NCBI RefSeq assembly: GCF_053078305.1
Contig: NZ_CP166879.1
Direction: 5' to 3' (one strand)
DNA length: 64,000 nt
Both the position numbers and the translations under genes were made by a program. The notes under the pieces were generated by a model. The model saw only the letters and a list, made by a program, of their open reading frames with translations, made no database searches and was not told where the DNA came from. Positions 9,894 to 60,888 of this stretch are shown piece by piece. Position 1 is the first letter of the stretch. The number at the start of each line of letters is the position of its first letter.

Positions 9894-9981
9894 CAGACGA
9901 AAATTGGTAACTTAGACGCCCATCTGATATAGACGGACATCTAAGTATGGAATTACATGAACCGCCCCGGAAATCCTGGAG

Positions 9982-10212
9982 ACATCTGGCCACCCTGATT
10001 CCTTCCCGTAACAACTGACGCCAGACTTTACGCACATCGTATACGCACGGTATCTTTTTCTTCAGCCAGTCATCACGCTGCGCACGGGCATTGCGTTTAT
10101 CAGGATGATGTCGCTGTTGCTGACAGTGGTAATACGTTGACGGGGCAATATGCAGTTCACTGCATACCGGTCCGATCCCGTACTGCTCACGCGACTTATC
10201 CAGCAGTGGCAT
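9982..10212 (-). pseudogene. IS629 orfB, 5' 77 codons only (deletion derivative)
   Basis: MPLLDK...GIRVARC matches the IS629 OrfB N-terminus; the reading frame then runs into the inverted-repeat sequence. Confidence 0.7.
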
Positions 10213-10538
10213 TATTTTTTCCAGGGGCGGTCGAACTCCGCCTTCGCAAAATAAGTGGAAGCCTGGCGAAGGATATCGTTACTGCGGCTCAGTTCACGAT
10301 TTTCACGTTCCAGCTCTTTCAGACGCTGACGTTCAGTGGTGGTGAAACCACCATCACCGCCCCCAATATCCTGCTCATGCTGGAGTACCCAGACGTGCAG
10401 AGTCTCCGGTGTACAGCCAATCTTAGGGGCAATAGAACAAATTGCTGTCCATTGTGAGTCATATTCGCCCTGACTTTCCAGAACCATACGAACTGCCCGT
10501 TGACGGACTTCGGGGGAAAAACGTGTATTTTTAGTCAT
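10212..10538 (-). CDS. IS629 OrfA (IS3-family transposase HTH subunit), 108 aa
   Basis: MTKNTRFSPEVRQRAVRMVLESQGEYDSQW... matches recalled IS629/IS1203 OrfA. Confidence 0.8.
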   Translation of the reverse strand: MTKNTRFSPEVRQRAVRMVLESQGEYDSQWTAICSIAPKIGCTPETLHVWVLQHEQDIGGGDGGFTTTERQRLKELERENRELSRSNDILRQASTYFAKAEFDRPWKK

Positions 10539-10752
10539 CCTGTTTACCTCTTTCTCAGGGAGTTTAGTCTCCAGGATTTCCGGGGCGGTTTAACGTTTAT
10601 AACAACTCCGACCATTCAAAATGGCCGGCGGGGTATAAATCCCTATCAATTTAACATTATCTCATTTGACATGAATAACGCCGTTTATCTATTTGTTGCC
10701 CTTTAGCTAGTTCATAGCAACCTAGAAAAATTTATTCGTTGCAATATAAATG

Positions 10753-12300
10753 CTACTTGCGTAGCGATAAAATTGCCCGTGCGGTTTCAGCACGGTTATA
10801 GATCTGCATTTTTTTTATTGCAGCATCCACATCTTCACCGCTTTTCTTATTCAGTTTAATCAGAAACTCAACAGGTAATAGCGAAGCTAAATTTTCAAAT
10901 TTTGATTCAGACCAAGTAATGGTTGCAACAGCCCCTTCAGTTCTCTTAATCATTAGTTTTTTAAGTAATTCTAAACGCTCTGGCTCAACAGTTATATAAC
11001 CAATCGGCAGGGTTAATGCACTATCAGAATTAGGTTGACCGTGGTATTGCACCAAAGCAATCACATCAGGAATTAAGAGGATCTCCAAACGATCAAATTT
11101 AGCCTCTGAAGTAAGGCCAATACCGGTAGGAAAACGACCTAAGTGCCGCTTACGCTCTTGACGTTTTTCACCTTCATCTGCACTTGAGTGTAAAAGCGAA
11201 ATGCGAGCAATCTTATCATCGGCATAATTGCCAAGTATATCGCCTAGAGCGCGAGTAAAACGCGAAAGTTGACTACCATTAGCTCCCCACAGTGGTACTT
11301 TACTGCTATACCACAGCGCTTTTGGAGCTGTTTTACCTATATAATCACGTAATGCATTATGCAACATACTAATGAACAGCTTAGAATTGTGCGGCAAATA
11401 AACAGCCCCTAACATGCCGGTAGTCAATGAAGTACCGTAGCCAGTTTTACGTTGTTCACGAGCCTCTATCCAGCCGGAATAGTTGAACTTATAACCATTA
11501 GCAAATTGTAACAACACTTTATCATTTGCTAGTTTACAGAAATCTTCACAGTCGATACCGAATTCATCTAGTTTATGTTCTCCCAAAAAATCTGCGATAT
11601 GAGCTTCCAGCTCGTTTGAAAGCGGCAGCCGGGTGTTACCTAAATATTCATAGGAACGAGTAAATTTCTGCGGCTCAATGCTCCCAGCAGAAACACCGTA
11701 GCTAACCTCTATCTCTATTGGGAGCTGCACCATCTCATGCGAACTACAGCCCATTATCTTATATAATTTAGTCCGTTGACGCTCATACTCGCTGTTGCGG
11801 CTGAGCAAAAGATGGTGCCGAAACTGGGAACTAAAAGCCTCTGTTACCGCAGCAGCATCTCCCCCGATCTGATGCCGCGGCAATAGCTCTGGCAGTCCAG
11901 AAGTAAAACGACGATTTGGTTGCGGTTTACATATCGAAAGAGTTAGTAGATCGAATGCAACTTCCTCCGTACATTCTTGATATTTAACTAAACTTGGCTT
12001 CCCACCATTATTAGCTGCATGCTTACGTAGGAATGAGCTAGCCTCAATATGCCCATCAGGATTAATGTTGATCAGTCTGTTAGCCAGCAACCCATCAAGC
12101 AATACCTCTCGCTCACGATCAGTTAGACCAAAGTAATTCTGTAACTCGCTGGGATAGAGTTGATCAAAAATCAGCAGCAAGCGACATGCAAACTGTTCAA
12201 TTCCAGGCATCAGTTTTTCAGTGGTCAAAGCGCAGTTGATCTTGTAACTACGCGCAGGTAGTAAAACGGTAATCAGATTACCCAGACGTGGTTCTGACAT
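10753..12300 (-). CDS. Hypothetical 515-aa protein, partner of the NERD-kinase-helicase gene; no motif recognised
   Basis: Long ORF in low-GC DNA; its ATG overlaps the upstream stop (TAATG) indicating translational coupling. No TM segments, P-loop, HKD, HEPN or other signature seen by eye. Confidence 0.7.
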   Translation of the reverse strand: MSEPRLGNLITVLLPARSYKINCALTTEKLMPGIEQFACRLLLIFDQLYPSELQNYFGLTDREREVLLDGLLANRLININPDGHIEASSFLRKHAANNGGKPSLVKYQECTEEVAFDLLTLSICKPQPNRRFTSGLPELLPRHQIGGDAAAVTEAFSSQFRHHLLLSRNSEYERQRTKLYKIMGCSSHEMVQLPIEIEVSYGVSAGSIEPQKFTRSYEYLGNTRLPLSNELEAHIADFLGEHKLDEFGIDCEDFCKLANDKVLLQFANGYKFNYSGWIEAREQRKTGYGTSLTTGMLGAVYLPHNSKLFISMLHNALRDYIGKTAPKALWYSSKVPLWGANGSQLSRFTRALGDILGNYADDKIARISLLHSSADEGEKRQERKRHLGRFPTGIGLTSEAKFDRLEILLIPDVIALVQYHGQPNSDSALTLPIGYITVEPERLELLKKLMIKRTEGAVATITWSESKFENLASLLPVEFLIKLNKKSGEDVDAAIKKMQIYNRAETARAILSLRK

Positions 12301-15300
12301 TAGTTGTTATCTCCAAGCAGACTTTGACCACACAGGATTTGGTAGTTGGGTTCATCTACTGCAACCTGTTTACTAATAAATTCATGAACGTTTCCAAGTG
12401 CTGAATCATTATTGGTCTTTGACCACATACGCCTTGCTCCCAGAATCAATAACCTTTCTTGAGCTCGCGAAATAGCAACGTTTATTCGCGGCGCGTCGCG
12501 CAGGAAACCTTGTAGTTTGTTGGGATTATCGCGAACCAGACTGAGGATAATTATCTTGTTTTCCTGGCCCTGATATGAATCAACGGTATCGATCTTGATC
12601 AAACCACGTAACGATGCAGCCCATTCAGCCCGACTGATAGCATTGTCAATTTCCTCTTTTTGCTGACGATACATTGTGATTATACCAATAGGATATGGCT
12701 GTTCTGTGGTAATAGTTTGCTCAAGCTGTGCAATGCAGCCATCACTCGACAATGACTGCAAAGCCTCTAGCAGTAGCCGGACTTCTCGTTGATTATAGTA
12801 ACGACCATTACCCTTATGTTCTTCTGCACCTGCTTCATTAGGGCTCGAACTATCGATCCAAGTAACAGTTTTGTTCCAAGGGATTGGTAACTTGGAATAC
12901 CAATCTGGCGAGACTTTCCTCGATGAATGCAGTTTACCGATATCTTGAGCGTAAAAGCACTCCGATACTAACTCGCCAATTGGTTCTACCATTCGATATT
13001 GAGTATCGAGTGTTACGCCGCCTGTTGCTTTAAAAGCACGTTCAAAATCAGACTCATAAAAGATCCCTTTCCCGAGTTCTAATTTCTTAGAGGCTAACTT
13101 AAGATGCTGTTGATGATAGAATGGTGGCAATTGTTTATGATCCCCTACCAACAGCACCCGCTTGCCTGATTGCAGCGCTACCATCAATTCAGCAGCTTGT
13201 GCTCGGCCAGCCTCATCAACTATTACCCAATCAAAGCTGGACTCAGCTAGTTCTAGTCGACGATTCCCAACACCAACAAGAGTTCCACAAACCAATCGCT
13301 TACTTTTGAACATAAATCGATCAAATCCAGCCTCGCCGCCGCGTAATACATCCATCCACTCTTGGCTCATTTCCAATAGCTGCATAAAACGTTCAAGGTT
13401 CTCTGGATTGTTATAATTGTATTGTATGGCAACTTGCTCAGCCAACTGTCTTATCAAGGTTTCATCATAGACAAGAGTTTTCAGCAAGCTGTCATCGAAT
13501 ATTGAGTTAATAATTTCTTGTGTTCGCAGTTTAAGCTGATTGCTTTGTTCTAATAATTCAGCCAGTCGCTCTTGATGACTAATACTACTACTCTTTATTT
13601 GTTCTACTTTATCCAGCTCACGGCTATATTGGCCATATGTCACCATCAAGGGATTCAGCGTACGATGTAACTGACATAACTGTTGGACTAATAATGGGGC
13701 CATCCCTAGGCGCTTTCCTAGGGAGCTAACTCGCAGATCATATTCACGGTGAAATTTATGCTGAATCTGTCGCTGAAGAGCTTTAGTTGCAACACTTAGC
13801 ATACCCTCATCAATCATAAGTTCATTACCAATACGTACTGTATCCAGTTCCATTCCTTTCGTATGGCAGAGCTCTCGAGCCTTGATGGCTACATTATCAA
13901 CAGAGGCATGGGATTGCCCGACCAAAAGAATGTTATTCACACCGCAATGTTGATACAGATAGTGAATAAATTTTGAAATAAATGTTGTTTTACCTGTTCC
14001 AGGTGGTCCCTGCAGAACTCCAACTGGTCCAAACTCGACCAACTGTTGAAATGCCATTAGCTGCTGTTCATTAAAACGTTGTCCAGGCTGATCATAAAGT
14101 GCGCGTAATGTCTCCGCGGATGGCCGCGGTTGCATTTGCTGCATGCAGGGTTTCTGGTGGTAATCAAAATACTGTGGCAGATGCTGGATCTCTGCTTTGT
14201 TTTCAATTACCCGTTGAAGGGCTCTTTGACGCAACTCTCTTGATGATTTGTCACGGATCGATTCCAATTGTAGCTGGCTGCCGCTACTAATTCGCTTACG
14301 AGCAGCATCAAAATCAAAGCGAATAGCCAATAGACTCGGCGTAGTCTCACTTAGCTGCAATTCCCCTAATTGCACTGATTCACGCTTATCTTTAATATAA
14401 ACAATGATCTTATCATCAAGTTCAAAGCTGAGGTCAGCACCGGATTCCGTAGTATATGGGTAGAGTAAGCAACCACTCGGTGATTCCTGAAAGTCAGTAG
14501 AGTCGATGTTGACTATATCTCGTAGGTCTACTTCTGTATCAGATAATGCCTGCCATAACTCAATTGGGCTTGACTCACTACTATCGAAGTCATCTTCATC
14601 CATCTCTTGATTAGGATTAGCTCGCTCAATGATGGCATCAATTACTGGCTCGAGGTTAAACAGTAGTTCAATAAAAGTATTACGCTGATTAAGTGAGCCA
14701 CGTTGTAATGAAAGTTGAGTATTAATTTTAGCCTGGGAATATTTACCAGCCTTTATACTTTCTTCGATCGATAATCCTTTTTCATACACTATTCTATTAA
14801 TAGTGCGATTATCAGGATCTAAGTCTATCAATAGCCGCTCTCCTAGGCCAGTGATGTAACAACGCAATTCATGCGCAAAGCGTGGGTTAGATGACCAGTT
14901 ACATTGAAAATAATAGATCCCATCATTTTGTTCTAGAAGCTTCACTTCTTGCGGCCAATCATCTGTGCCCCAGCAAACAGGAATTACCTTATCCTGTGAC
15001 TCAGACGCCACAACTTGATTAATCTCAGCTTGTTCCGGTGCTCGAATTGACTGCAGCAAAGGATCGAGCGCGATAGGTATACCGTCAACGGTTTGTTTTG
15101 CGCGTTCTAGCTCAGCCTGCACCAGTACTGGCATATCTTCACTAAATAGCTCCTCCACCATACGATATACTGCAAAGCAATCTCGCCCAAAAGCATCAGT
15201 ACTTTCGGGATTCTCTGGCTGGTAGCGATTATCTGCAGTTAATTCATCACTGAATTCAAGCAATCCAATCAGAGTAATTACTGTCTGCTCCCCGACTTGT

Positions 15301-17258
15301 ACCAGCAGTTTCTCTGGGCAAAGATCTCCATGAGGTAACTGCTTTTCATGAAAAGCATGAATGGTGTTGATCAACTTTTCCGCAATTGTAAAACGTTGGG
15401 ATTGTACTAACACGTTCTCAGCAATAAACTGTGACCACGGTAGGCCATCCACATACTCGCTCACTACATACAAGCCGCCTTGTCCTAATAGTCCATAGGA
15501 CTGCACCTTAGGAGTTGGCAGATTTATATGCGTAAGCTTATCGATCCGTTGCTTAAAAGCGTGGATACGGCGGTTAACACCAGGTTGTTGAGGGGTCAAA
15601 ATAACACCATCCCACAATTTTACCTGCAGAGCTTTCCCACCTTGTTCACAGTGATAACTGATGCTGCCAGTCGTAGCAATAGCAGCAAGAGCAGAGTAAA
15701 CCATAGACAACTGTTCAGGAAGTGGAGGAAACTCAATTAACACACCAACGCTGTTCATCCCTTCGCGAAAGAATTTGTTTTGCTTTAATTCTTGATAAAT
15801 CTGGTTAGCTTCATCAAATTCTTGGCTATGTTCCTTAGTAGCTGCATTAAACTCATTGAGCATTATGTCCGCACGTGGAAAGCGTTTACTTGGCTCAAGG
15901 TTAAGAGCTTGCTCAAACCAGCTATTTAGAATACCGCTAAAAGGATCAGTTAATGGAGCTCTCCATTCAGGCATCTGTCCAGGAGTCAGTAATGATTCAC
16001 CTGCAAAACAAATACGATAAGCAATTACAGCCAACATGAATACATCTAGGCGATAGGGCTCAACTGCTTCTTCAAAAGCATCTTCGGGCAAAATATATGG
16101 AGCACTTTGCAATGTCGGACGCAATGACTCTAGGCTATTATGTCCCTCCAGTGAGGCTGCGCCAAAGCCAGTAACGACAATGCTCTTCTGATCCCCTGCG
16201 TACCATAGATTGTGCGGGTCAATATCACAATGACTGATACCCAAGCTATGTAATTCCGAGAATGGAGCTAATAATGCACGAACGCGATCAATACGCTCAG
16301 ATTTACTCCATCCGTCAGCTTCGCTATCTAGAATCTCATCTAATCGGCTAAAACTACGGCGTAACTCATACAGCTCACGGGCATCATCAGTTATATCCTC
16401 CTCGGATAGTTCCCTTACAGCACGCAACATATAATCCTGCATAGTTGCGCTGCCATGACGAACTAGGCGACCGACTCGAGTCTCACGCAGAGCTATCTCA
16501 GCCCACAATGTTTGCATTGCGTTTGCTACACCCAAGGCATCAAAGTTCCACTGCCGTAGCAGACCTCTGTGTTGACTATTGTCTTTGTGGGTAGCCCTGA
16601 ATTCGTTGTAGACCATGTGAGGGTGACTAAAGAATGGCTTATCGTTCGCAAGATAACCGCTTTCTTTTAGTGGCAAAGGCCTGACTTTTGGTCCTTCAAA
16701 GAAGGACTTAATTATAGGTAATGCCTCATCAGAATTTGGTCGAGGCTTTCCCCCTTCAAAAAGATGAAAAAAGTTAGTGTGTTGCACCAGCTTTTCGTAA
16801 TTTTTTGGGTTACCTATAGTCAAGAATTCATCACGGGTATGAACATAGCGCCTCTCACTTAATGGCAAGTTTTCAGGACCAGCTGTGCCACACAGCACTA
16901 CATGAGCCTCAACATGCAAAAAGTAACCCAGCTTACGAGATAACTCTTCCTGCAACAAATCTTTTAGTCGCAGTGCATGCTCACGCTTGATCTGATAGGG
17001 ACTTTTGCCTCGTGACTTACCATTTTGCAGCCACTTCCCCCCTTCAAATGTGATGTTACCATTCCACTCTTTAAGCTCGACTAATAGCAGACGGTCAGCA
17101 GTAATAATTAGCATATCGATTTCCATCGACCCTTGGCTATCAGTAACAACTAAGCCAGCATAGCCAAACCAACTATCTGGTAACTGCTTAACCATCATAT
17201 CAACTGTTTTGGTTTCGCTGCGGTGCAGGCCAGCACCACCTACTATCTGATACTTCAC
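12300..17258 (-). CDS. 1652-aa multidomain protein: NERD (PD-(D/E)xK-like) domain, two protein-kinase-like domains, Upf1/DNA2-like SF1 helicase
   Basis: GTG start with GGAG about 9 nt upstream; NERD-like EIDMLIIT...LLVELKEW (aa 45-64); kinase-like catalytic loops HCDIDPHNLW (aa 343-352, then TGFGAA) and HGDLCPEKLLV (aa 643-653); helicase Walker A GPPGTGKTT (aa 1085-1093), Walker B VIVDEAGRA (aa 1345-1353), VGDHKQLPP, DSYQGQE, NVAISRAQERL. Confidence 0.75.
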   Translation of the reverse strand: MKYQIVGGAGLHRSETKTVDMMVKQLPDSWFGYAGLVVTDSQGSMEIDMLIITADRLLLVELKEWNGNITFEGGKWLQNGKSRGKSPYQIKREHALRLKDLLQEELSRKLGYFLHVEAHVVLCGTAGPENLPLSERRYVHTRDEFLTIGNPKNYEKLVQHTNFFHLFEGGKPRPNSDEALPIIKSFFEGPKVRPLPLKESGYLANDKPFFSHPHMVYNEFRATHKDNSQHRGLLRQWNFDALGVANAMQTLWAEIALRETRVGRLVRHGSATMQDYMLRAVRELSEEDITDDARELYELRRSFSRLDEILDSEADGWSKSERIDRVRALLAPFSELHSLGISHCDIDPHNLWYAGDQKSIVVTGFGAASLEGHNSLESLRPTLQSAPYILPEDAFEEAVEPYRLDVFMLAVIAYRICFAGESLLTPGQMPEWRAPLTDPFSGILNSWFEQALNLEPSKRFPRADIMLNEFNAATKEHSQEFDEANQIYQELKQNKFFREGMNSVGVLIEFPPLPEQLSMVYSALAAIATTGSISYHCEQGGKALQVKLWDGVILTPQQPGVNRRIHAFKQRIDKLTHINLPTPKVQSYGLLGQGGLYVVSEYVDGLPWSQFIAENVLVQSQRFTIAEKLINTIHAFHEKQLPHGDLCPEKLLVQVGEQTVITLIGLLEFSDELTADNRYQPENPESTDAFGRDCFAVYRMVEELFSEDMPVLVQAELERAKQTVDGIPIALDPLLQSIRAPEQAEINQVVASESQDKVIPVCWGTDDWPQEVKLLEQNDGIYYFQCNWSSNPRFAHELRCYITGLGERLLIDLDPDNRTINRIVYEKGLSIEESIKAGKYSQAKINTQLSLQRGSLNQRNTFIELLFNLEPVIDAIIERANPNQEMDEDDFDSSESSPIELWQALSDTEVDLRDIVNIDSTDFQESPSGCLLYPYTTESGADLSFELDDKIIVYIKDKRESVQLGELQLSETTPSLLAIRFDFDAARKRISSGSQLQLESIRDKSSRELRQRALQRVIENKAEIQHLPQYFDYHQKPCMQQMQPRPSAETLRALYDQPGQRFNEQQLMAFQQLVEFGPVGVLQGPPGTGKTTFISKFIHYLYQHCGVNNILLVGQSHASVDNVAIKARELCHTKGMELDTVRIGNELMIDEGMLSVATKALQRQIQHKFHREYDLRVSSLGKRLGMAPLLVQQLCQLHRTLNPLMVTYGQYSRELDKVEQIKSSSISHQERLAELLEQSNQLKLRTQEIINSIFDDSLLKTLVYDETLIRQLAEQVAIQYNYNNPENLERFMQLLEMSQEWMDVLRGGEAGFDRFMFKSKRLVCGTLVGVGNRRLELAESSFDWVIVDEAGRAQAAELMVALQSGKRVLLVGDHKQLPPFYHQQHLKLASKKLELGKGIFYESDFERAFKATGGVTLDTQYRMVEPIGELVSECFYAQDIGKLHSSRKVSPDWYSKLPIPWNKTVTWIDSSSPNEAGAEEHKGNGRYYNQREVRLLLEALQSLSSDGCIAQLEQTITTEQPYPIGIITMYRQQKEEIDNAISRAEWAASLRGLIKIDTVDSYQGQENKIIILSLVRDNPNKLQGFLRDAPRINVAISRAQERLLILGARRMWSKTNNDSALGNVHEFISKQVAVDEPNYQILCGQSLLGDNN

Positions 17259-17468
17259 GTTTTCTCCTGCACCACTAAATTTTTGTTGGTGGTAGTCCAG
17301 TAAAAATGGATGTAGTTATCTAAGACAGCGCATAGATTGTGCCTGCCTAACCCTAAAAAGTGTAATTATGAAAAGTAACGCTAGAAATTCTATACCGTTC
17401 GCAAAGAGAACACTTTTCAAAGATATATCATCATCTTGAACATGTCACTATAATGGTGAATCCATAAG

Positions 17469-17630
17469 ATGCGAACACCACATCTTGTGCCACTCAGCAA
17501 ACAGGCTGTAGCCATACTGATAAAACTTCAGACATGGGCAGTTGAAAATGGTCTGGTCTTTACGGGAGCACATGACCCGCGTAAACCAATCAGCGAAAAC
17601 ACCGTAAATAAGGCCCTTAGGTGCCCTTGA
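17469..17630 (+). pseudogene. Tyrosine-recombinase (phage integrase) C-terminal fragment, about 53 codons
   Basis: Translates to MRTPHLVPLSKQAVAILIKLQTWAVENGLVFTGAHDPRKPISENTVNKALRCP*, resembling the integrase segment around the catalytic region; no N-terminal part present. Confidence 0.35.
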
Positions 17631-17725
17631 ACCACTATATCCAGACAGCCGTTGAGCTTAAGTTAACGTTACCGAGTGACGTTGATATTCCCTCGGTGAG
17701 AGATAACCAAGGCACCATGAGGATG

Positions 17726-18353
17726 CTATTCGTTATAGTGTTCGAACGCCTCCGCAAGGTTTTTTACTGCCGTTAACACGTCCGGTTTAGGTATGATACT
17801 GATGTAATCGCTCTTCATCGTTTTCACGAACCGTTCTCTCATTCCATTACTCTGAGGGCTACTGACTGCCGTCGTGCAGAGCTCCAGATTCAACTCTCTG
17901 GCGAACTGCCGTGTTTCATGAGTTGTATAAGCCGAACCGTTATCGGTCAGCCACTGGATGGGCCATCCCGGTCTATCGCCAAAGCGTTTTTCTATCGCTC
18001 CTGACATGACATCCTGCACCGTTGCTTTGCCATAACCTCCCGTGCTTGCGGCCCAGTCTATGGATTCAAGATCGCAACAGTCCAGTGCGAACGTGACACG
18101 CAGTTTTTCGTCATCATCACAACCGAACTCAAAGCCATCGGCACACCAGCGCGGGTCGCTTTCCTTCACCGATATTCGGGCCTTTATGTTCCCTCTGCGG
18201 TCGTGAAGGTTTGTCATGTAATAACAACAGGTTATTCTCGCTCATTATTCGATAAACGCGATTTGCATTCACGAACTGCAGTCCTTCGTTAAGACTGCCG
18301 TCTGAGAATAGCCCAGACACGACGATAGCCATCGAATCGCTGAACAGCGTCAT
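17726..18353 (-). pseudogene. IS2-like (IS3 family) transposase OrfB remnant, truncated and frameshifted
   Basis: 163-aa ORF contains [10 protein letters not shown]...WLTDNGS...AEAFEHYNE resembling IS2 InsD; the upstream 74-aa ORF in another frame carries the adjacent NANRVYRIM segment. Confidence 0.6.
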
Positions 18354-18459
18354 TCGGCAGGCGATAAAGAAGGTGTCGTTACGGGGAAGTCATCTTCACA
18401 GAGATTTTCAGTCAGTTAGCATTACCGACATTCATTCACCAACTTACCGGAGATAATCA

Positions 18460-18789
18460 ATGTCAAAACCCCGATGGACCATTGAACAGAAAAGGCAGCA
18501 CGTTGCTGCCTGGCGCGCCAGTGGTCTTACACGTCAGCAATACTGTGAACTCAACGATATTCCCTTCACATCACTTCGCGAATGGCCGCAGGATGTCGCA
18601 AAAGCTGAACGCCGGGCAAATGAACCGACCGTTCTTCCCGTTCATATTGCGCCACCACTGCATGCTGATGTACCACAGCCCGTCACGAATGAGCCAGTCA
18701 CGCTCTTCCTTCCCGGCGGAGTACGGATGTGCTGTCAGCCGTCACAACTTACCGATGTCTTCAGGGCGCTCAAATATGCTCAGTCCTGA
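18460..18789 (+). CDS. IS66-family element B, OrfA-like (HTH), 109 aa
   Basis: Small HTH-like ORF immediately upstream of an IS66 TnpB-like ORF in the typical overlapping arrangement. Confidence 0.5.
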   Translation: MSKPRWTIEQKRQHVAAWRASGLTRQQYCELNDIPFTSLREWPQDVAKAERRANEPTVLPVHIAPPLHADVPQPVTNEPVTLFLPGGVRMCCQPSQLTDVFRALKYAQS

Positions 18790-19168
18790 TAATGTCTTCA
18801 TCGCGATTAAACCTGTTGACATGCGCCGGGGCATCGACACACTGACGCAGTATATACAGGATGAACTCCGGTCGACATGGCATGAGGGAGCCGCCTTCGT
18901 CTTTGTTAACAAAGTCCGTTCGCGTATCAAAGTTCTCCGGTGGGATAAACACGGGGTGTGGTTGTGTACCCGCCGTCTGCACAAAGGCAGCTTCCGCTGG
19001 CCACGTGCAAATGATGCTGCCTGGCACCTCACTCCCGACGAGTTTAACTGGCTGATTGCCGGTGTTGACTGGCAGCAGGTTAAGGGACATGACCTGACGA
19101 AATGGGGCTGGCAGAATGAACCTGAACTGCGCCCTGAAAACACGCAAAATACACTGCTAACTCAGTGA
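18776..19168 (+). CDS. IS66-family element B, OrfB (TnpB-like), about 130 aa
   Basis: MLSPDNVFIAIKPVDMRRGIDTL... typical IS66 OrfB; ATG overlaps the orfA stop (ATGCTCAGTCCTGA). The 228-aa ORF in the track is an upstream extension of this frame. Confidence 0.65.
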   Translation: MLSPDNVFIAIKPVDMRRGIDTLTQYIQDELRSTWHEGAAFVFVNKVRSRIKVLRWDKHGVWLCTRRLHKGSFRWPRANDAAWHLTPDEFNWLIAGVDWQQVKGHDLTKWGWQNEPELRPENTQNTLLTQ

Positions 19169-19295
19169 AAAATAATGAATATCCGTATCCGGAGTGGTAT
19201 ACTCCCCTGTATGGATATCTCCGCTCTCAACACCACGAATGACATCGAAAAACTGCGTGCTATGGGTAAGCGTCAACGGAGCACCGTATTGACGC

Positions 19296-20909
19296 TTATT
19301 TATTGGTGAGTACTACGTTCCATGGCAGGAGTTCATCAACTCGGTTGGAAGGCCATTCTGGCAGTACGCTCAGGATATGGCGCAGATACGCTTCCGGATC
19401 GATACCGTTCAGACGGCAGGTGCCGATCAGCCCGTACAACAGTGCTCCACGCTCGCCGCCGTGATCGCTGCCAAAGAACATAAAGTTTTTCTTTCCGAGA
19501 CAGACTGCACGAAGCGCTCTTTCCGCAGCATTATTATCCGCCTCCGCCAGACCGTCATCACTGTAATAACAGAGGGCATCCCACTGATTCAGTACATAGC
19601 TGAACGCTTCGCCCAGTCTGGATTTTTTCGACAGCGTACCATTCTTCTCCACCATCCATTCATGCAGTGACGTCAGTAACACTTTGCTTCGCTGCTGCCT
19701 GACGGCAAGACGCTCTGACTCCGGTAATCCCCGTATTTCATCCTCGATGGCGTACAGTTCACTGATTCGCTTCAGGGCTTCTTCTGCCGTCGCACTTTTG
19801 CTGCTGATGTATACATCGTGGATTTTTCGCCGGGCATGGGCCCAGCACGCAACTTCTGTCAGTGCACCACCTTCACGTTCTGCACTGAACAGCCGATCGT
19901 AACCGCTGAACGCATCCGCCTGCAGGATACCCCGGAAGGGACGAAGGTGTTGTACCGGATGTTTTCCCTGCCTGTCTGGTGAGTAGGCGAACCAGACCGC
20001 CGGTGGCTCTGATGAGCCCGCATTCCGGTCATCCCGGACATACGTCCAGATGCGTCCTGTTTTTGCCTTTTTTCTGCCCGCTGCCAGCACTTTTACTGGT
20101 GTGTCGTCAGTGTGAACCTTGCGGGTGTTCATCACGTAACGGTACAGGGTATCATTCAGCAGAGTCATTAACTGACAACATGCGTCAACCCAGTTGGAGA
20201 GTAATGCCCGGCTCAGTTCGATGCCCTGGCGGGCAAAGATTTCACTCTGACGATACAGTGGCAGGTGTTCGCAGTATTTTCCCGTTAACACGCGGGCAAG
20301 TAATCCGGAGCCCGCGATGCCGCGCTCTATCGGGCGGGACGGCGCTGGCGCTTCAACTATACAGTCACATTTTGTACAGGCTTTTTTTACCCGAACAGTG
20401 CGGATCACTTTCAGGGCGCTACTCACCAGTTCCAGCTGCTCAGCACTGACTTCCCCCAGATAATCCAGCTCACTGCCACACTCCGGGCAACAACTTTCTT
20501 CAGGCTCCAGACGGTGTATTTCACGGGGAAGATGTGCCGGTAACGGACGACGATGACGTGACTGTCGCAACTGGCGGGGAACCTGCGGGTCATCCTCACG
20601 CCCACTGTAACGATCGCTTTCCTGTTCGCGTTGTTTCAGTTGGGCCTCAGCCTGTTCAACCTCACGCTGCAGTTTTTCAGAACGGGTACCGAACAACATC
20701 CGGCGCAGTTTTTCTATCTGGGCCCTCAGATGTTCTATTTCCCGCTCCTCCTCTTCGATCTTTTCCTCGGCACGTGCCAGTGCAGAGCGCAGGAAGGCCT
20801 CCGTCTCTTCAACCAGACTCAGTTGCTGATCTTTCTGACGGAGGGCTTCAGCCTGCTCAGAGAGCAGCCTTTCCAGCTCAGTGATACGAATGAGGTATTT
20901 CCGACTCAT
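19296..20909 (-). CDS. IS66-family transposase OrfC, 537 aa (element A)
   Basis: Coiled-coil N-terminus, CxxC zinc-finger region, DDE-type core typical of IS66 TnpC. Confidence 0.8.
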   Translation of the reverse strand: MSRKYLIRITELERLLSEQAEALRQKDQQLSLVEETEAFLRSALARAEEKIEEEEREIEHLRAQIEKLRRMLFGTRSEKLQREVEQAEAQLKQREQESDRYSGREDDPQVPRQLRQSRHRRPLPAHLPREIHRLEPEESCCPECGSELDYLGEVSAEQLELVSSALKVIRTVRVKKACTKCDCIVEAPAPSRPIERGIAGSGLLARVLTGKYCEHLPLYRQSEIFARQGIELSRALLSNWVDACCQLMTLLNDTLYRYVMNTRKVHTDDTPVKVLAAGRKKAKTGRIWTYVRDDRNAGSSEPPAVWFAYSPDRQGKHPVQHLRPFRGILQADAFSGYDRLFSAEREGGALTEVACWAHARRKIHDVYISSKSATAEEALKRISELYAIEDEIRGLPESERLAVRQQRSKVLLTSLHEWMVEKNGTLSKKSRLGEAFSYVLNQWDALCYYSDDGLAEADNNAAERALRAVCLGKKNFMFFGSDHGGERGALLYGLIGTCRLNGIDPEAYLRHILSVLPEWPSNRVDELLPWNVVLTNK

Positions 20910-20939
20910 GACCGTTTTTATAATCCGGCCATGACATTT

Positions 20940-21290
20940 TTACAACATTGTCAGTGCATTAAGGCGGGATGTTTTGGGCTGACGCCAGTCCAGTTTATCG
21001 AGGAGCATTGCCAGCTGCGAGCGGGTAATGGATACCTTACCGTCACGCACCGCAGGCCAGATAAACTGGCCTTCCTCCAGACGTTTGGTGAACAGGCACA
21101 GACCATCAGCATCAGCCCACAGAATTTTAATCGTGTCACCCCGTCGGCCGCGAAAGATAAACAGGTGACCGGAGAAGGGGTTCTCATCCAGCACATGTTG
21201 TACCTGTTCTCCCAGACCGTTGAAGGATTTACGCATATCAGTAACGCCGGCAACCAGCCAGATTCGAGTGCCTGATGGGAGCGAGATCAT
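20940..21290 (-). CDS. IS66 OrfB (TnpB), 116 aa (element A)
   Basis: MISLPSGTRIWLVAGVTDMRKSFNGL... characteristic IS66 OrfB. Confidence 0.8.
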   Translation of the reverse strand: MISLPSGTRIWLVAGVTDMRKSFNGLGEQVQHVLDENPFSGHLFIFRGRRGDTIKILWADADGLCLFTKRLEEGQFIWPAVRDGKVSITRSQLAMLLDKLDWRQPKTSRLNALTML

Positions 21291-21712
21291 CGTCCCCTCC
21301 CGGTCAGTTCACGGATCAACACCGTGAGCAGCTCTGGTGAAGGATTTTCCAGCGTCATGTTACCGTGGCGGAACTCAACTTTACAGGAACTGGCACTGAC
21401 TGTGCTTTGTGAAGGAGTGGATAAAAGCGGAGTAAGAGCCGCCACAGGCTCTTTCTGCTCATCAGGCGTTATCTCAACAGGTAATAATTCAACGCCAGCG
21501 CCAGAAGAGGTTGTTACCGGAAGACGCCGCGATATACGCCCTTCGTTCTGCCAGAGCCTGAGCCATTTGAACAGGAGGTTATCATTGATATCGTGTTCCC
21601 GGGCAATACGGGCAACAGAGGCTCCTGGTTGTGAAGCCAGTTTAACCATTTGAAGTTTAAACTCATTTGAAAATGATCTGCGGGGTTCTGAGGATAATAT
21701 TTTCTGTTCCAT
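21287..21712 (-). CDS. IS66 OrfA, 141 aa (element A)
   Basis: HTH-containing OrfA (NEFKLQMVKL...); overlaps orfB by 4 bp. Confidence 0.75.
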   Translation of the reverse strand: MEQKILSSEPRRSFSNEFKLQMVKLASQPGASVARIAREHDINDNLLFKWLRLWQNEGRISRRLPVTTSSGAGVELLPVEITPDEQKEPVAALTPLLSTPSQSTVSASSCKVEFRHGNMTLENPSPELLTVLIRELTGRGR

Positions 21713-21802
21713 AACAGGTGTCCACTAGTTGAAAAGGTGGGCACCTACGTTACCAATACTGGCTTAATGGCTACATACGGCGGTCAGTTTACGCTTACTG
21801 CT

Positions 21803-23320
21803 ATGGCACTTACCATGGTACAAAAAGTCATGTCGGAGAATGCCGAAAAAGAGCGGGAATTACTGGAGAAAAGCCGGCGCATCCAGCTTCTGGAAGAAAT
21901 GCTGAAACTGGTTCGTCAACAGCGCTTCGGTAAAAAATGTGAAACGCTGGCTGGTATGCAACGCTCCCTGTTCGAAGAGGATGTTGATGTCGATATCGCC
22001 GCGCTTACCGCACATCTGGATAAACTGCTCCCGCAATCCCCTGAAGAAGACGAAAAAGCGTCCCGTTCACGCCCGATACGCAAACCCTTACCGGCTCATC
22101 TTCCACGGGTGGAAAAAATTATCCAGCCGGACACTGACCATTGCCCTGAATGTGACGAGCCGCTGCACTATATCCGTGATGCGGTGAGTGAAAAGCTGGA
22201 GTATATTCCCGTTCACTTCGTGGTGAACCGTTATGTCCGTCCGCAATACAGTTGTCCCTGTTGCCAGAAGGTGTTCAGCGGTGAAATGCCGGCACATATC
22301 CTCCCGAAAAGTGCCGTTGAGCCATCAGTCATCGCACAGGTGATCATCAATAAATACGGTGACCACCTGCCTCTGTATCGCCAGCAGCACATTTTCTCCC
22401 GAATGGGGGTGGAGCTCCCCGTCAGTACAATGGCGGATAGGGTCGGTGTTGCTGGCGCTGCACTGGCCCCGCTGGCAAAATTGTTACGCCACGAGCTTCT
22501 GACACGGGATGTTATTCATGCCGATGAAACGTCCCTGAGGCTCCCTGATACCCGGAAAGGCGGTAAATCCTGCTCCGGCTGGCTGTGGGCTTACGTCAGC
22601 GGAGAAAGAAGCAGTCCGCCGGTCGTCTGTTTTGACTCGCAGACCGGACGGGCCCTCAGATATCCTGAGGCCTGGCTGCAGGGCTGGTGTGGCGGTACGC
22701 TGGTGAGTGACGGATACAGCGTGTACAAATCTCTGGCGGATAATGACCCCGGTATTACATCTGCCTGTTGCTGGAGCCACGCAAGGCGCGGTTTCGCAAA
22801 TCTGTATAAGGCCAGCAGGGAGCCCCGTGCAGCCATGGCGCTGAGAAAAATCGCGGGTCTTTATCGCATTGAGAAGTTCATCCGTGAACGTCCTGTGGAA
22901 AAAATACGGCAATGGCGACAACGGTATTCCCGGCCGATAGTGAATGACCTGTTTGCCTGGCCTGAAGAGCAGGAGCCGTGCTGTCCGCCCGACGGACCAC
23001 TAAACAAAGCGATTAATTATATCCTGAACCGGCGCGATGAACTGAGCTGCTTCCTGAGTGACGGAGCCGTGCCCCTGGACAACAATATCTGCGAGCGTGC
23101 TATCCGCCCGGTCGTTATGGGACGAAAGGCCTGGTTGTTCGCCGGTTCACTGATGGCCGGAAACCGCGCGGCACAGATAATGAGCCTTCTGGAAACGGCA
23201 AAACGTAATGGTCTGGAGCCACATGCCTGGCTGACAGACGTCCTGGCGCGTCTGCCGGAATGGCCAGAGGAGCGACTGGCAGAGTTGCTGCCTCTTGAGG
23301 GATTTACCTTCTCCGGGTGA
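21803..23320 (+). CDS. IS66-family transposase OrfC (element B), about 505 aa; start codon lies inside the duplicated target of element A
   Basis: IS66 TnpC-like sequence; the track's longer ORF (from 21737) reads through the element A inverted repeat, so the first ATG after the repeat (21803) is preferred. Confidence 0.65.
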   Translation: MALTMVQKVMSENAEKERELLEKSRRIQLLEEMLKLVRQQRFGKKCETLAGMQRSLFEEDVDVDIAALTAHLDKLLPQSPEEDEKASRSRPIRKPLPAHLPRVEKIIQPDTDHCPECDEPLHYIRDAVSEKLEYIPVHFVVNRYVRPQYSCPCCQKVFSGEMPAHILPKSAVEPSVIAQVIINKYGDHLPLYRQQHIFSRMGVELPVSTMADRVGVAGAALAPLAKLLRHELLTRDVIHADETSLRLPDTRKGGKSCSGWLWAYVSGERSSPPVVCFDSQTGRALRYPEAWLQGWCGGTLVSDGYSVYKSLADNDPGITSACCWSHARRGFANLYKASREPRAAMALRKIAGLYRIEKFIRERPVEKIRQWRQRYSRPIVNDLFAWPEEQEPCCPPDGPLNKAINYILNRRDELSCFLSDGAVPLDNNICERAIRPVVMGRKAWLFAGSLMAGNRAAQIMSLLETAKRNGLEPHAWLTDVLARLPEWPEERLAELLPLEGFTFSG

Positions 23321-23921: not shown

Positions 23922-24197
23922 CTATTTTTTATCTTCTTTTCTTTCTTGTAACTTTGCTTTTATCCAAATACCAATCCCTGCTAACATACCAGCCCCTCCC
24001 CCCACCTTTAAAGAATAAATAATATCTGCCCTCCAATCAAAAAATAAAACTTGAGTTTTAGAAAAAACTATCAGTCTACCAAGAATAGTACCTAACATTG
24101 CCATAAAAAAGATGCAAGCTATGCAGCGCATTATTAGTATGATAAGAATGTAAAAGTTGACACTCTTATTTATTTTTAATGGATTTATCAGCTTCAT
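23922..24197 (-). CDS. cdiI: CdiI-like immunity protein (small membrane protein), 91 aa
   Basis: Overlaps the cdiA 3' end by 32 bp; hydrophobic helices; position typical of CDI immunity genes. Function inferred from context. Confidence 0.55.
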   Translation of the reverse strand: MKLINPLKINKSVNFYILIILIMRCIACIFFMAMLGTILGRLIVFSKTQVLFFDWRADIIYSLKVGGGAGMLAGIGIWIKAKLQERKEDKK

Positions 24198-27100
24198 CTA
24201 GTGTTCCTTTTGTTACATTCCCGATAGCTTCACCAGTAATTGTTCCCCCAATATTACCAATAATATCAGATGTTCCCTCTTTGACAGTAGAGCCCATTGA
24301 CCCCGAGATGACTTTCCCTATACCGCCACCAAATACTGAACCTAATCCTGTCCCAATAACTGAATTTGTCGGATCCTCGCCTTTAATACTACTACCAATT
24401 GCCGCGCCGCTCATGTTGATAGGAGTTGAGACGATGATGCCTTTACCGGTTGTAGCTGCAGCTGTCACCCCAGCCATTATCGCATCCACATAACTGAAAG
24501 GACCTTTTCCAGCAAGCTGAGCAGCTGAGTTTACGCTGATACCAATTGCTGCATTAGTCGCCATACCTTTCACTGTTAACCCCAGTACGCTTCCTCCAAA
24601 CAACAAAGGAGCATCACCAATACTTGCATTAGATTTATGATACCCCCAGGTATTCATAATGCTTTGAGCCTTTGCCATTGCTTCAGTATCAGGGTTACGT
24701 TTTATATAGTCCTGTCCTGACAGTAACCCGGTAACAAGCTCCTGTGCCACCGCTGTACCGTACTCCTTTTCCATTTCTGAAGCATATACACGCAAGTAAG
24801 CTGCCAGTTCAGCACGTTCTGCGCTGTTTAATTGTGAAGGATCTTTATTAAATTTGGATACCAGAGCATCACTACGTTTATCTGCATTTTCCAGCTTAAT
24901 CAGCTCATTAGCAGTGGCTAATGTCTTATCGCCGTTCCTGATTTTCTCAATGGCTTTATCCAGTTTGTCAGAAGATGTCGCTCCCAGAAAGTTATTCTCA
25001 ACAGTCGTCTTACCTGACTGTGCGCCGGCTACCGCTGAAGCCCCCGAGTTGCCCACCAGACCACCGGCCAGGCCGGCAGCAACCGTTGCCAGTGTCGAGA
25101 CCGTCTGCTTCTCTGTCTCGCTCAGTTCACTCACCGGCTTACCGTACATCTGTGTGGCTATCATTCCCACCACCTCGCCGGTGGCAGCCCCTGCGGCACC
25201 GGCAAGGGCATTATTTCCCTGTGCCACCGCCAGCGCGGCATTCACAACCGCATGGGCGGCCACACGCCCCGCACCGTCCGGGGTGTTATTTTTGATTATT
25301 TCTGCAATGTACGGCGCAGCACCACCTGCCAGGGCTGCACTCAGATTACCACCGGCCAGTCCCTGTACCGCTGCCGTTGCAGCCTGTATCGCCTGCTGGT
25401 ATTTGCCTCCCGTTCCAAAACCGGAGGCTGCCATACCGTTATTGTAGGCCCGCTGTGCCACATCCTGTTCCGTGAACGGTTTTCCTGCTGCCTCAAGCTC
25501 CGCACGGGCCTGATTCAGTGCTGCCGGGTCCCGCTTCGCTTTCTCACCGGCTATCTGTCCTTCCGTTCTGGCAATATCTGCCACCTGGTTACCAATCTCA
25601 CCAATGAGTTGCGCCTGCTGCAGTCGCTGCTGCTCTTTTTCCCTGTCAAAGATGGGGGACAGCGTCTGATTTGCATGTGCTGCGTCACGGTTCAGGTCTG
25701 CCACATCCTGTTTCTGGCTCTGCGTATCCCGGATGGTGATATTCCCGGCAGACACTGCCGACTGCGTGGTACTGTCCGCATGGCCTTCATGATTTGCACC
25801 GACCAGCAGATTGTTTGCCATGTTCCCCAGGAAATTTCCAGCAACACTGCCACCGGTACTGAGCCCTGTACTCTGATGTTCCGTTTTAAAGTCGGCCCGG
25901 TTTTCAATGTCACTGAAGCCCAGTGTGCCGGTATCCAGCCTGTTTTTATCTGCCGTTGCCGTGGACGCAATCACCGCACCGTTCAGTTGCGTATGCTGTC
26001 CGGTGGTGACATCAAACCCGCCCCTGCCGGCAAAAATCCCCGTCTGCTCCTGTACACTGTCGTAGTTACTGTGCATTTTATCCCGGCTGAGGTTCACACT
26101 CGCCGAACCGCTCATGGACCCGAAAATGAAGCTGCCTCCGGCGCTGGCATTCTGCTGCTTACTGTCATAACGGTCACTGTCCTGCTCACTGGTCAGTGTC
26201 AGATGACGACCGGCATCCACTTTCACCGTTTCACCGCCAGCCTGCGCGCCGGTAAGCGTGGTGTCCCGCCCGCTGATAATGGTCAGCCGGTTTCCCGCAT
26301 CCACCGTGGTTTCTGTATGGGTGGTACCGTTGCCTTTTTCACTGCCCTTACCCTGGTTTGCGCTGGCTGAAACACTGATACCCCAGCCTCCGGAGCCCAC
26401 ACCAACACCGACACCCACGCTGCCACCACTGGATGTGTTCTTTCCTTCCAGCTTTGACGTGTTTTCTGCTGATACCAGATTCACGTCACGGTTTGCCTGC
26501 AGCAGAACGTTGTTCCCGGCCTTTATCTGACTGCCCTGTATCGTCAGGTCACCATCCACGCCCTTCACGCCGGAGCCGGTGGCCTGAATACTGAGGTTAT
26601 TACCTGCGGTCAGTGTACTGCCCTTCGCCACCGTCTGCTCTGACTGCTGTTCTGATTTCGAAGACTGGCTGCCGTAAGAGAGGCTGATGCCCACCGTGTT
26701 ATTATTTCCGGCATCGGCTCCCTGCGCGTCTGCCAGTCGTCCGGCCTGCACGGCCTGAGCCCCCGAGAGCGCGGCCTTCACCCCCTGCAGGGCTTCAAGC
26801 CGGCTGTTTCCGGCAGATTTCGCCGCCTGTACGGTCTCCACCGTCGTATTCAGGGCGCTGCCCGCTGTGCCGGACAGGGCAAGCGTCAGACCGGAGGTTT
26901 TCTGCTCCACCGTATGTGTCTGTACATGCTGGTCTGTGGCGGCGGTAATGCTGACCTCCTTACCGCTGAGTGCCATGTCCCTGCCGGCAATCAGGTCAGA
27001 GCCGTTGACGGTCAACCGGTTACCTGCCTGAAGGGAAACATCACCGTGAACACTCCCCACCGTGCTGCCTTTCTGTGTGGTGTCTGTTGCGGTGTCCGTG

Positions 27101-30100
27101 ACTTTCAGACTCTGGCTGCCCATGCTGAATCCCACACCTCCGGAGCTCATCAGCCCAGATTTTTTCTCCTGTTTCAGGTGTGTTTCACGGTTGCTTTCTG
27201 TCAGCGTGCCGATACTCAGGTCATTTCCGGCAGCCAGGGAGACACGGTTATCCCCGGCCACACTGCTGCCCGTGACGTTCAGATTATGTCCGGCACTGAT
27301 ACTGACCGTATCCCCGTTCAGTTCACTGCCCGTCATGGTCCGGCGGTCAGTGACATCATGCGTGGTTGTGGTGGTTTTCGATAACATCCCGCTGCTGCCG
27401 GTCACTTTATGGTATTCATCCAGCGAGCGGGTATTCTGTGCACCGGTCAGCGTCACGTCATGACCTGCCATCAGGGCCAGGCCTTTCTGAGCTGACAGCG
27501 ATGCCGCCTGTGACGTCATATCCCGTCCGGCGGTCAGCGTGACATCACCGTTACCGGCAAGCGTGCTGCCCGTACTCTGTGTGACGCCCTGCGACAGACG
27601 ATTATTTTTATCCCAGATAATATTGTCCTGCGCGGAAGTGGTCACAGTGGAAAGCGTCATATCCCTGCCCGCACTGAGTTGCGTCAGGCTGTCCTTACCC
27701 TGATTCACCACCGTTGCAGCCGTCAGATTCATATCCCGTCCGGCCTGCAGCACCAGTCTTCCCTGGTCGTTCTGCACATACACGCCGGCCACACTGTCGA
27801 TACTGGTACGTTCAAAATGGTTCTGTCCGGCGTCGCGCTGTGCCGTACGGGTGGTGGTGGTCAGACTGATATCCCGTCCGGCCATCGCCAGCAGGCTGTC
27901 CGTGGCCTGCAGCAGCCCGCCGGTACTGTTAATATCCGTCCGGGCCGTCAGGCTGACATTTGCTCCCTGAATGGAGCCGGCCTGGTTGTGAATGTTTTCT
28001 GCACTGAGCTGCACGGTCTGCTTCCCGGCCAGTTTACCGCTGTTAAACAGGTCACCATCCAGCTTCATCACCATGTCCCTGCCGGCAATCAGCGCACCGG
28101 CGCTGTTCACATCACCGGGTTTTACACGGGCATACACCTGAGGTACCTGAACCGTCTGCGTGCTGCCGTCCGGCAGTGTCACCGTGGTGTTAACCAGCCA
28201 GACAATATCACCGGTCAGTAACGCCATCTGCTCAGCAGTCAGCGCCACACCTGGTGTCAGGTTGTATTGCTTACCAAATGCAATACCCGCATCCATTAAC
28301 GCCTTAAACTGCTCTTCATCATTACTGTATCCGTCCAGGTACCGTTGCCCGGTCAGAGCGACAACCTGCTCACGAATCAGACGCTGTTCGTAAAAACCAT
28401 CCCCCAGGCGTTTGAGCATGTTATCCCCGTTCTGAGAAAACGCCTTCTGCATGTAATCACTGCCCAGCCACGTCTTCTGGTTCGTAAAACGCGGGTCCGT
28501 TTCAACCAGATATGGCACATTCACTGCCGGGTTTGTTTTAAACAGGCTGCTGTCCGGCAGACGGGTATCCGGCCCGGCAACATGGATACTGCCCTGAGGT
28601 GCGCTGACTTCAAACTGCTGCCCCGGCAACAGAATGACCGGTTCACCGGCAGACACCACCGGGCGAAGCGGTATCCGGTCAGTAGCGGCTACTGCCGCAT
28701 CCACATTTCCGGCCTGTCCTGTCTGTACATCCGTTCCCTGTGGCTTCAGAGGAGAAAGCGTGACCTGGCTGCCCTGAATCTGTCCGTGGCTGGTGAGCTC
28801 TCCCGGCTTCAGCGTAATGCTCTGAATTACAGTGGGCGGAGTGTACTGAGAGGTTTTCTCCCCCTGCTTATCCTTTCCTTTTTTCCTGATACGGTAATAA
28901 TACGTGGATGTTCCTGAGTCCGTAACATGCCGCTCGCCACTGACACTGACATTTTCCACGCTTCCTGACGGAATGGTCAGCAGGCCGCCTGCAACAACCT
29001 GACTCTTATCATTAAGCAGTTTGTCTGCCACAATCGTCATGCCGGCACCGGACAGAATTTTTCCCGGGTCGGAGTCTTTTACCCGGGTTTCTTCCACGGT
29101 ACGGGTGTAATCATACTGCGTGAATTTATCTCTGGCGCCTTCCGGTGTATGCAGTTTTTTCAGTGAGTTACTGGAATCGTTATCCACATAAACGCCCGGT
29201 TCACCGGCGCTCCAGCGTTTATCTGAGCCGCTGAGCTGATACTCAGTCACCTTTTCCGTGGAAACCACCACGCGCTCCGTGGTGAAATGGTCATTGACGT
29301 TATTGATTTGTCCGGCACTCAGTACCAGATATCCGGCGGCTTCAATAGTGGCACTGTGATTATTCAGTACACCGGCTTTCCCCGTGGCGGCACCATTCGC
29401 ATCCAGCATGCCACCAGTATGCATATCACCTGCACTGTAAATCAGGCTGTGCGTCCGGTTATTCAGGGTCTGTACCCCTAAGTCCACACGCTCACGCCCG
29501 GCCAGCGTCGCCGCCACGCCATTTTCTTCCAGATTATTAAATGTGGCAGCGCTGACACCAACAGCATCGCCGTAGATTCGCCCGGTACCGGAATTCGTCA
29601 GGGTGTTCGCCTGAAGATGCGTATATTTCCCGTCAATCAGCCCACGGTTCAGCAGTGTGTCCGTCACGTTAAGCCAGGTCTGCCCGGCACTGATTTCACC
29701 TTTCTCTGTGTTTTCAAGGCGGATGCTGTTCAGGTCAAGCCGGCTGCCTGCCAGCAGGCTGCCGGTATTAGAGACATCGCCATTAACGGAAAGCGTAAGG
29801 TTTCCGTTCGCAATAGTCTGACCACTGTTGCTGAACGTTGTGTTACTTTTCAGCGTCATATCGCCCAGCGAAAGCAGTTTCCCGTCACCACCGAGCTGAC
29901 CGGCATCCACAGATACTGACTGCCCGGCCTTAACCACGCCGTCACGGTTCGAAAACGCCAGCTGACGGCCACTGACAGACAATGTCGCGCCGGAAGAGAG
30001 GACGCCGTCATTATTACTGAGCGTCCTGTCTGCCATAACCGTAAGCGCCCTGTCTGCCAGAATACTGCCCTCCTGGTTATCAAGGTCCTGCGTCGTGATG

Positions 30101-33279: not shown

Positions 33280-33294
33280 TCTGATAAACCTGAC

Positions 33295-33822: not shown

Positions 33823-33831
33823 GAAACTTTC

Positions 33832-47141: not shown

Positions 47142-47250
47142 TTCATTACCTGTTACATTCTAAATAATCTCAGACAGATATTATCTCCGTGAATCCCCCG
47201 CCACCTTTCCGGTGCGCGGGGTTTTGTCTTTTTTCACCGGGAATACATGT

Positions 47251-60215: not shown

Positions 60216-60224
60216 ATCCGCTCC

Positions 60225-60875: not shown

Positions 60876-60888
60876 GTTCAATTCCTTC

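Follow-up and report, generated by a model that had tools for sequence, protein, structure and literature searches.

The window analysed here (64 kb, 64,000 nucleotides) is E. coli island DNA that carries iha, an L-lactate operon, a CdiB/CdiA pair, an Ag43-like autotransporter gene, and a CP4-like module running from a GTPase gene to CbtA, and no tRNA gene was found in it. The locus of interest centres on a giant minus-strand gene encoding 1652 aa, and the region singled out in the initial annotation is the DNA on the 5′ side of this gene. The features of the locus are listed in Table 1.

Table 1. Features of the Mokosh-like locus and its surroundings; positions are those of the window.
Feature	Position	Strand	Evidence or content
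Left IS3-family relic (orfA, 5′ part of orfB), truncated at 9983	9983..10603	-	Pfam HTH_Tnp_1 1e-09
mkoB-like gene, 515 aa	10753..12300	-	PADLOC MkoB PDLC03923, E 1.1e-61
mkoA-like gene, 1652 aa	12300..17258	-	PADLOC MkoA PDLC03921, E 0, 1305 bits, full length (residues 2-1642)
Cassette-specific mkoA upstream region, presumed native promoter / 5′ UTR	17259..17408	-	Travels with the cassette in AW1.7, without int or IS scar
~60-bp scrap of CP4-type GTPase-upstream region (ykfA/yfjP family)	17409..17468	+	AW1.7/ykfA alignments
Integrase pseudogene fragment, codons 277-328 of a 421-aa pheU/pheV-type P4-family tyrosine integrase	17466..17621	+	blastn/tblastn
IS3-family (IS2-group, ISEc48-like) relic	17622..18330	-	Pfam, OrfB alignment, terminal-repeat alignment
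56-bp internal scrap of an IS256-family transposase gene	18317..18372	.	94.6% match in an IS256-family pseudogene, strain GZ2408C
Left part of older IS66-family element	18372..19265	+	tnpA 18460-18789, tnpB 18776-19168, tnpC start
IS682-like IS66-family element, inserted in the older IS66-family element	19266..21798	-	GTAAGCG terminal repeats

The giant gene and its partner were both matched by PADLOC models. Pfam domains of the MkoA-like protein were NERD, Pkinase (4.5e-09), and an Upf1-type SF1 helicase (AAA_11, 2e-46; AAA_12, 5e-45), and the partner gene mkoB is directly adjacent, its start overlapping the mkoA stop at 12300. Type I Mokosh has been described as an MkoA protein with an Upf1-like helicase and a Ser/Thr-kinase-like domain, together with a PLD nuclease partner (bioRxiv 10.1101/2022.05.11.491447). 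Since the architecture found here is as described, the candidate system next to the scars is a predicted Mokosh type I-like anti-phage pair (MkoA, MkoB). The MkoB-like protein yielded no Pfam family at E ≤ 1, and a motif test detected no HxK motif in it at all, hence no HxK..D; by this test the PLD-nuclease active site is absent. The protein may be a divergent or a non-PLD effector variant. To the left of mkoB, the first IS3-family relic contains an ALIL frameshift pseudoknot (Rfam RF01497 at 10141–10257, 107 bits) and is labelled by PGAP as ‘transposase, frameshifted, missing C-terminus’.

Several other features of the window were recorded. A contact-dependent inhibition locus lies a few kb from the scars (24166–35571, minus strand) and encodes a CdiB-like transporter of 579 aa (ShlB/POTRA) and a CdiA-like protein of 3037 aa with TPS, haemagglutinin repeats, and a PT-VENN pre-toxin domain. 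Just downstream of the CP4-type GTPase gene (47212–48123), a match to the Rfam IS102 RNA (RF00124, 74.7 bits, 48240–48476, plus strand) overlaps the start of the Ag43/AIDA-like autotransporter gene (48420–51617). Three plus-strand ORFs of 840, 339, and 263 aa (51732–54254, 46122–47141, and 42503–43294, respectively) had no Pfam family at E ≤ 1e-5. At 59105–64000, the DUF4942 end of the island adjoins ulaD-ulaC-ulaB-ulaA on the minus strand, with no ulaE or ulaF between. The best E. coli matches of this 5.2-kb ula-side stretch were approximately 96.5% identical, and the island parts were 99–100% identical to E. coli; the former value may reflect a divergent Escherichia lineage as host or an unusual junction.

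The initial annotation had reported an integrase-like piece at approximately 17469–17630 and had suggested a translated search of it against integrases. This search bore the report out: tblastn aligned aa 277–328 of the pheV integrase to the fragment with 92.3% identity (E 7e-26), and blastn matched window positions 17466–17621 to nt 829–984 of the 1266-nt integrase gene located by tRNA-Phe (pheV) in the O26:H11 strain 11368 (92.9%). The best intact match was the pheU-linked integrase of ATCC 8739, with 94.9% nucleotide identity. Genome counts given here refer to a set of 5,426 complete E. coli genomes, of which approximately 3,400 carry a 90–95% identical stretch within an annotated tyrosine-recombinase gene. 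The integrase homology is thus real and far beyond chance. The 53-aa peptide of ORF 17469..17630 itself gave no Pfam match at E ≤ 0.1 because it is too short, and the homology was established instead by DNA comparison and tblastn. This ORF starts at an internal methionine (Met278), and its final codons (C-P-stop) are read from an IS terminal repeat.

The description of the piece as a C-terminal fragment was wrong. In the intact 421-aa integrase, Pfam assigned Arm-DNA-bind_3 (aa 3–88), Phage_int_M (98–192), and Phage_integrase (PF00589, 211–383); the fragment falls inside PF00589, with 276 N-terminal and 93 C-terminal codons missing. None of the catalytic residues of the intact homologue (R238, H341, R344, and Y378) falls within aa 277–328. 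No complete architecture of the three domains is present, just these 52 codons being left, and no further integrase piece was found in the 64-kb window below E 0.28. In sister genomes, PGAP labels the same coordinates as ‘tyrosine-type recombinase/integrase, missing N-terminus and C-terminus’. As judged from its sequence, the fragment is an internal slice of a catalytic domain and would encode nothing functional.

On the right, the integrase homology stops at 17621 (..AAG GCC CTT AGG), and an IS terminal inverted repeat begins with the TG at 17622. The sequence TGCCCTTGAACCACTATATCCAGACAG from 17622 was aligned, column for column, to two reference terminal inverted repeats, one from IS2 and one from an intact ISEc48-like element, both of which are TG-first. 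Since the integrase homology ends exactly where the terminal repeat begins, we concluded that an IS3-family (IS2-group) element struck the 421-aa P4-family integrase gene of a pheV/pheU-type island exactly after codon 328. The element, described in the initial annotation as a frameshifted IS2-like transposase remnant, proved to be fairly so described: its Pfam matches were rve (4.3e-15) and rve_3 (7.5e-8), which represent the DDE transposase domain, and OrfB residues 82–306 of 306 are retained, split by three frameshifts into four frame segments and interrupted by one in-frame stop. Only the 3′ 709 bp remain, and orfA, OrfB aa 1–81, and the other end, with the second terminal repeat, are deleted in the window. 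The OrfB remnant was closer to ISEc48-like elements (75–79% aa and 84% nt identity) than to IS2 (68% aa, ~70% nt).

A full-length, decayed copy of the same IS (1320 bp) was found at the same int junction in STEC17-190, with its far end present and unrelated DNA on the far side. In this copy, no target duplication was seen (the flanks are TTAGG and GAAGA), and no 3′ part of the integrase follows. In CLSC36, the source of the intact ISEc48-like reference element, a near-identical 15-bp direct repeat, TTTTAATCAG(G/A)CGCC, occurs on both sides of that element (locus L004, 2471–2486 and 3816–3832). Target duplications of IS3-family elements are usually 3–5 bp, much shorter than this repeat.

The relic is bordered on its right by further insertions. 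It is cut at 18330 and followed by the IS256-family scrap and then, from 18372, by an IS66-family element; thus, within the range 17259–18353 delimited by the initial annotation, 17622–18330 holds as the relic proper, and 18331–18353 belong to the 56-bp IS256-family scrap. The older IS66-family element is interrupted at 19265 and resumes at 21799–22389. A search for inverted repeats at its ends found weak pairs alone, and its left limit was set by homology. The IS682-like element that interrupts it has a clean 8-bp target duplication, TGCTATGG, and is missing at the matching site in SC516, TUM12355, and 2017.04.02CC, suggesting that its insertion is recent. The IS2-group relic has decayed by three frameshifts and one stop and, in this lineage, was truncated at 18330 by IS256-/IS66-family insertions.

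On the left side of the fragment, strain AW1.7 provided the informative comparison. The mkoA 5′ end with its upstream 207 bp was present in 71 of the 5,426 genomes, 69 of which have the integrase scar junction; the other two are assemblies of AW1.7, and the scar-free context is accordingly known from this one strain. AW1.7 is 95.8% identical to window 10604–17468, and its GTPase gene begins 39 bp further on. From the equivalent of window 17409, AW1.7 also aligns to the ykfA locus (79% over 444 bp), which indicates that CP4-type backbone makes up the final ~60 bp ahead of the integrase scrap; the direct match of window 17409–17468 to the ykfA upstream region is 28 bp at 82%, and the CP4 link is mainly transitive via AW1.7. 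The CP4-type scrap stops ~40 bp short of the position of the GTPase start codon in AW1.7. A 10-bp indel, GCATTCCAAA, which is present in AW1.7 (locus L008, ~9950–9960) and missing in the window at 17408/17409, falls exactly at the boundary between cassette-specific and CP4-type GTPase-upstream DNA.

Three-way comparison placed the breakpoint in an AAG common to the cassette flank (..TCCATAAG/), the integrase (..CTCCAAG/ATGCGA), and the window, where the slash marks the break. Integrase codons 1–276 are gone, and codon 277 is joined to DNA that corresponds to the mkoA–GTPase intergenic region of AW1.7. The alignment indicates that codon 277 was fused to this cassette-side CP4-type DNA via the 3-bp AAG microhomology. 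The CP4-like GTPase gene of the window at 47212 was considered as the missing partner of the scrap and rejected, as its identity to the AW1.7 gene is ~68% and the sequence upstream of it does not match. It belongs to a different CP4-like module, 68–75% identical, which lies 30 kb away at 47–59 kb. A simple inversion between IS copies was likewise discarded: it would have put the mkoA upstream region by an IS end, not by integrase codon 277.

The initial annotation had also proposed that IS activity remodelled the promoter region of the cassette. This proposal found no support, because the 207 bp next to mkoA are 88% conserved, with the 10-bp indel included, in the scar-free AW1.7. The IS end is 364 bp away from the mkoA start, a GTG codon preceded by the RBS AGGAG at 7 nt. 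A functional scar, in which the junction or the IS end would provide a new promoter element altering Mokosh expression, could be built around one minus-strand site: TTCGCA in the integrase scrap (17475–17470) and TATAGT (17452–17447), separated by a 17-nt spacer, match the consensus at 9 of 12 positions and straddle the junction, and the equivalent −35 position of AW1.7 matches the consensus worse. In a consensus promoter scan, however, the region contained 5 promoter-like sites against 2.3 ± 1.6 expected from shuffled sequence, all of minimum score and thus at chance level, and the mkoA strand had no such site from 17476 to the IS end. Given also the conservation of the mkoA-proximal 207 bp in AW1.7, we regard a promoter gained from the scar as very improbable. 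An alignment of mkoA upstream regions across Pantoea, Shewanella, and Vibrio had 41% mean column identity, which is too weak to define a conserved promoter. The promoter of mkoA is most likely still its own and contained in the conserved 207 bp.

We then considered whose integrase the fragment represents. It had been proposed to be the relic of an integrase that delivered the cassette and decayed in place. The mobility of the cassette itself was supported. In AW1.7, it lies in a CP4-57-like integrative element at ssrA, in the order ssrA - int (IS2-disrupted) - ... - Qat - mkoB - mkoA - GTPase - DUF932 - ... - CbtA, with the integrase on the mkoB side and convergent with the operon. In Pantoea and Shewanella, MkoA homologues (79–81% identical) lie in islands with intact three-domain P4-type integrases, which are located beyond mkoB and are convergent with the operon. 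The ~60 bp of CP4-type backbone in the window also points to a mobile cassette. Comparison with related genomes for an intact, integrase-attached version of the cassette, another suggestion of the initial annotation, thus found one in the Pantoea and Shewanella islands, the integrase being on the mkoB side in every case. Other MkoA homologues were found among defence genes and transposase pieces, or by rplY on a short contig. The cassette also recurs within defence islands: Qat precedes it in AW1.7, and in EcPF14 (locus L009, 10272–17644) the Mokosh-int-IS block is followed by a CBASS operon encoding a cyclase, an AAA ATPase, and a 3′-5′ exonuclease.

The carriage of the cassette as cargo of P4-integrase islands in relatives, and the membership of the fragment in the same P4 integrase family, would favour a delivering integrase. 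In contrast to the integrases of AW1.7, Pantoea, and Shewanella, however, the window fragment is located on the side of mkoA and reads away from the cassette, and a scrap of CP4 backbone stands between the two. Furthermore, a chimeric query, in which 200 bp of the intact integrase were joined to the window junction, matched a single one of the 5,426 genomes, 2017.04.02CC. Its arrangement, yqgA - tRNA-Phe (pheV) - int codons 1–328 - IS relic - IS66 - tssG′, contains the int::IS junction at pheV without Mokosh, with the integrase gene at its native site, and is 99.4% identical to window 17466–19265. Mokosh-positive genomes such as TUM12355, in turn, have another, intact integrase at pheV (394 aa, 43% identical to the 421-aa type), followed in TUM12355 by ~47 kb, mkoB-mkoA, int(277–328), and the right-hand DNA of the window. 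The position of the integrase on the mkoB side in relatives, the Mokosh-free pheV junction, and the other integrase of TUM12355 together suggested that the fragment comes from an older resident island, and a delivering integrase decayed in place is accordingly unlikely. On the gene orders compared here, the fragment appears to be the leftover of the integrase of that older island, with the cassette having come from elsewhere and then been fused to it.

The Mokosh-free int(1–328)::IS state was seen in this one genome of the 5,426, with 7 differences from the window among the 156 positions of its integrase part; the arrangement of 2017.04.02CC may be a secondary recombinant and not the ancestor. 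In SC516 (locus L001, 11369–11545), and likewise in TUM12355 (locus L021), a second integrase scrap (aa 362–420, 86% identical) lies on the opposite strand to the left of the Mokosh block; this scrap is missing from the window.

The best explanation of the region, and in our assessment a probable one, is that mobile-element scars without function have piled up here, where two modules of a mosaic E. coli genomic island meet. The Mokosh cassette would have been cargo of a CP4-57-like integrative element, beside its GTPase gene. Accretion at one tRNA site would then have placed the cassette DNA between the tRNA-Phe gene and the older, already crippled island, and an illegitimate deletion or recombination probably removed the DNA from ~40 bp upstream of the GTPase start through integrase codon 276. 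The simplest route is accretion at pheV with a later deletion, in which we infer the tandem integration from gene order alone; a search of the window and of the islands examined for att-type direct repeats of the tRNA-Phe 3′ end found none.

The block 9983–18332 is common to all Mokosh-positive contexts. Its left edge is the truncated end of the left IS3 relic, it is bracketed by two different IS3-family relics, and the flanks differ outward from these relics in at least three island contexts. After its assembly, the block would have spread among island contexts by homologous recombination, with the IS relics and the integrase scrap providing the homology. Compared with STEC17-190, the window has 23 difference sites that cluster in 17996–18310, and none in 17200–17995; compared with 2017.04.02CC, 7 difference sites cluster in 17499–17567, with one elsewhere. 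These clusters show that crossovers took place in both the IS relic and the integrase scrap, for which reason the order of events cannot be fixed and the history is reticulate. The integrase scrap and the two IS3 relics may even serve as portable homology arms with which the 8.4-kb Mokosh block hops between pheV/pheU-type islands, a proposal that we put forward tentatively.

The same bracketing raises the alternative that an IS-bounded composite unit (IS3 relic - mkoB - mkoA - ... - IS3-family relic) was inserted into the integrase gene, with no accretion or deletion. The position of the block between two minus-strand IS3-family relics, and the variation of the flanks from within the IS copies outward, are consistent with such a unit. 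Nevertheless, the two relics are different members of the family (the left one with the ALIL pseudoknot, the right one ISEc48-like), and the integrase fragment is itself part of the block, located between the cassette and the right IS. Moreover, what joins the left side of the integrase fragment to CP4-type DNA is a 3-bp microhomology and not an IS end, and the full-length IS copy of STEC17-190 has no target-site duplication. We therefore consider a composite unit improbable and favour the stack of scars formed by accretion, deletion, and recombination.

The scraps upstream of the Mokosh pair are an ordinary scar of island reshuffling and not the remains of a delivery vehicle. Both pseudogenes are already annotated by RefSeq/PGAP at the same coordinates in sister genomes, and the finding is in this respect ordinary. 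Its value is mainly one of bookkeeping: the candidate system is recognisable as a Mokosh type I-like cassette, and the scars upstream of mkoA should be taken neither as the integrase of the cassette nor as evidence of a rewired promoter. Reconstructed at base level, the locus also illustrates cleanly how shuffling moves defence cassettes from one E. coli island to another: an IS enters an island integrase, nested insertions truncate that IS, a microhomology joins the integrase to CP4-type DNA, and crossovers occur in the scars. All of these are processes of textbook island mosaicism.

Each component was compared with known systems. Like Mokosh type I (Millman et al., bioRxiv 10.1101/2022.05.11.491447), the cassette encodes the helicase and kinase-like domains of MkoA, and both MkoA and MkoB are matched by PADLOC, whereas its MkoB differs in having neither a Pfam PLD domain nor the HxK..D motif. 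The integrase fragment is 93–95% identical in nucleotides and 92% in amino acids, over codons 277–328, to the pheV/pheU P4-family integrases (WP_001218848.1 in O26:H11 11368; WP_001218853.1 in ATCC 8739), but it comprises 52 of 421 codons and lacks the arm-binding and central domains, the R-H-R-Y residues, and an adjacent tRNA/att site. The relic shares the rve DDE domain and the TG..CCAGACAG-type terminal inverted repeat with IS2 and ISEc48-like elements, but is not IS2 itself (~70% nt) and is truncated, with three frameshifts and a stop. In CP4-57 / CP4-6-type elements (int ... GTPase - DUF932 - antirestriction - RadC - YeeU/CbtA), one of which holds the AW1.7 cassette at ssrA, the backbone is present; the window keeps ~60 bp of GTPase-upstream DNA next to the cassette, and the GTPase and the other backbone genes are absent here. 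Finally, mobile-element fragments and a mosaic structure are hallmarks of pathogenicity and genomic islands (PMC7545054). The locus is an example of such islands that does not differ from them in kind, with its breakpoints mapped to the base.
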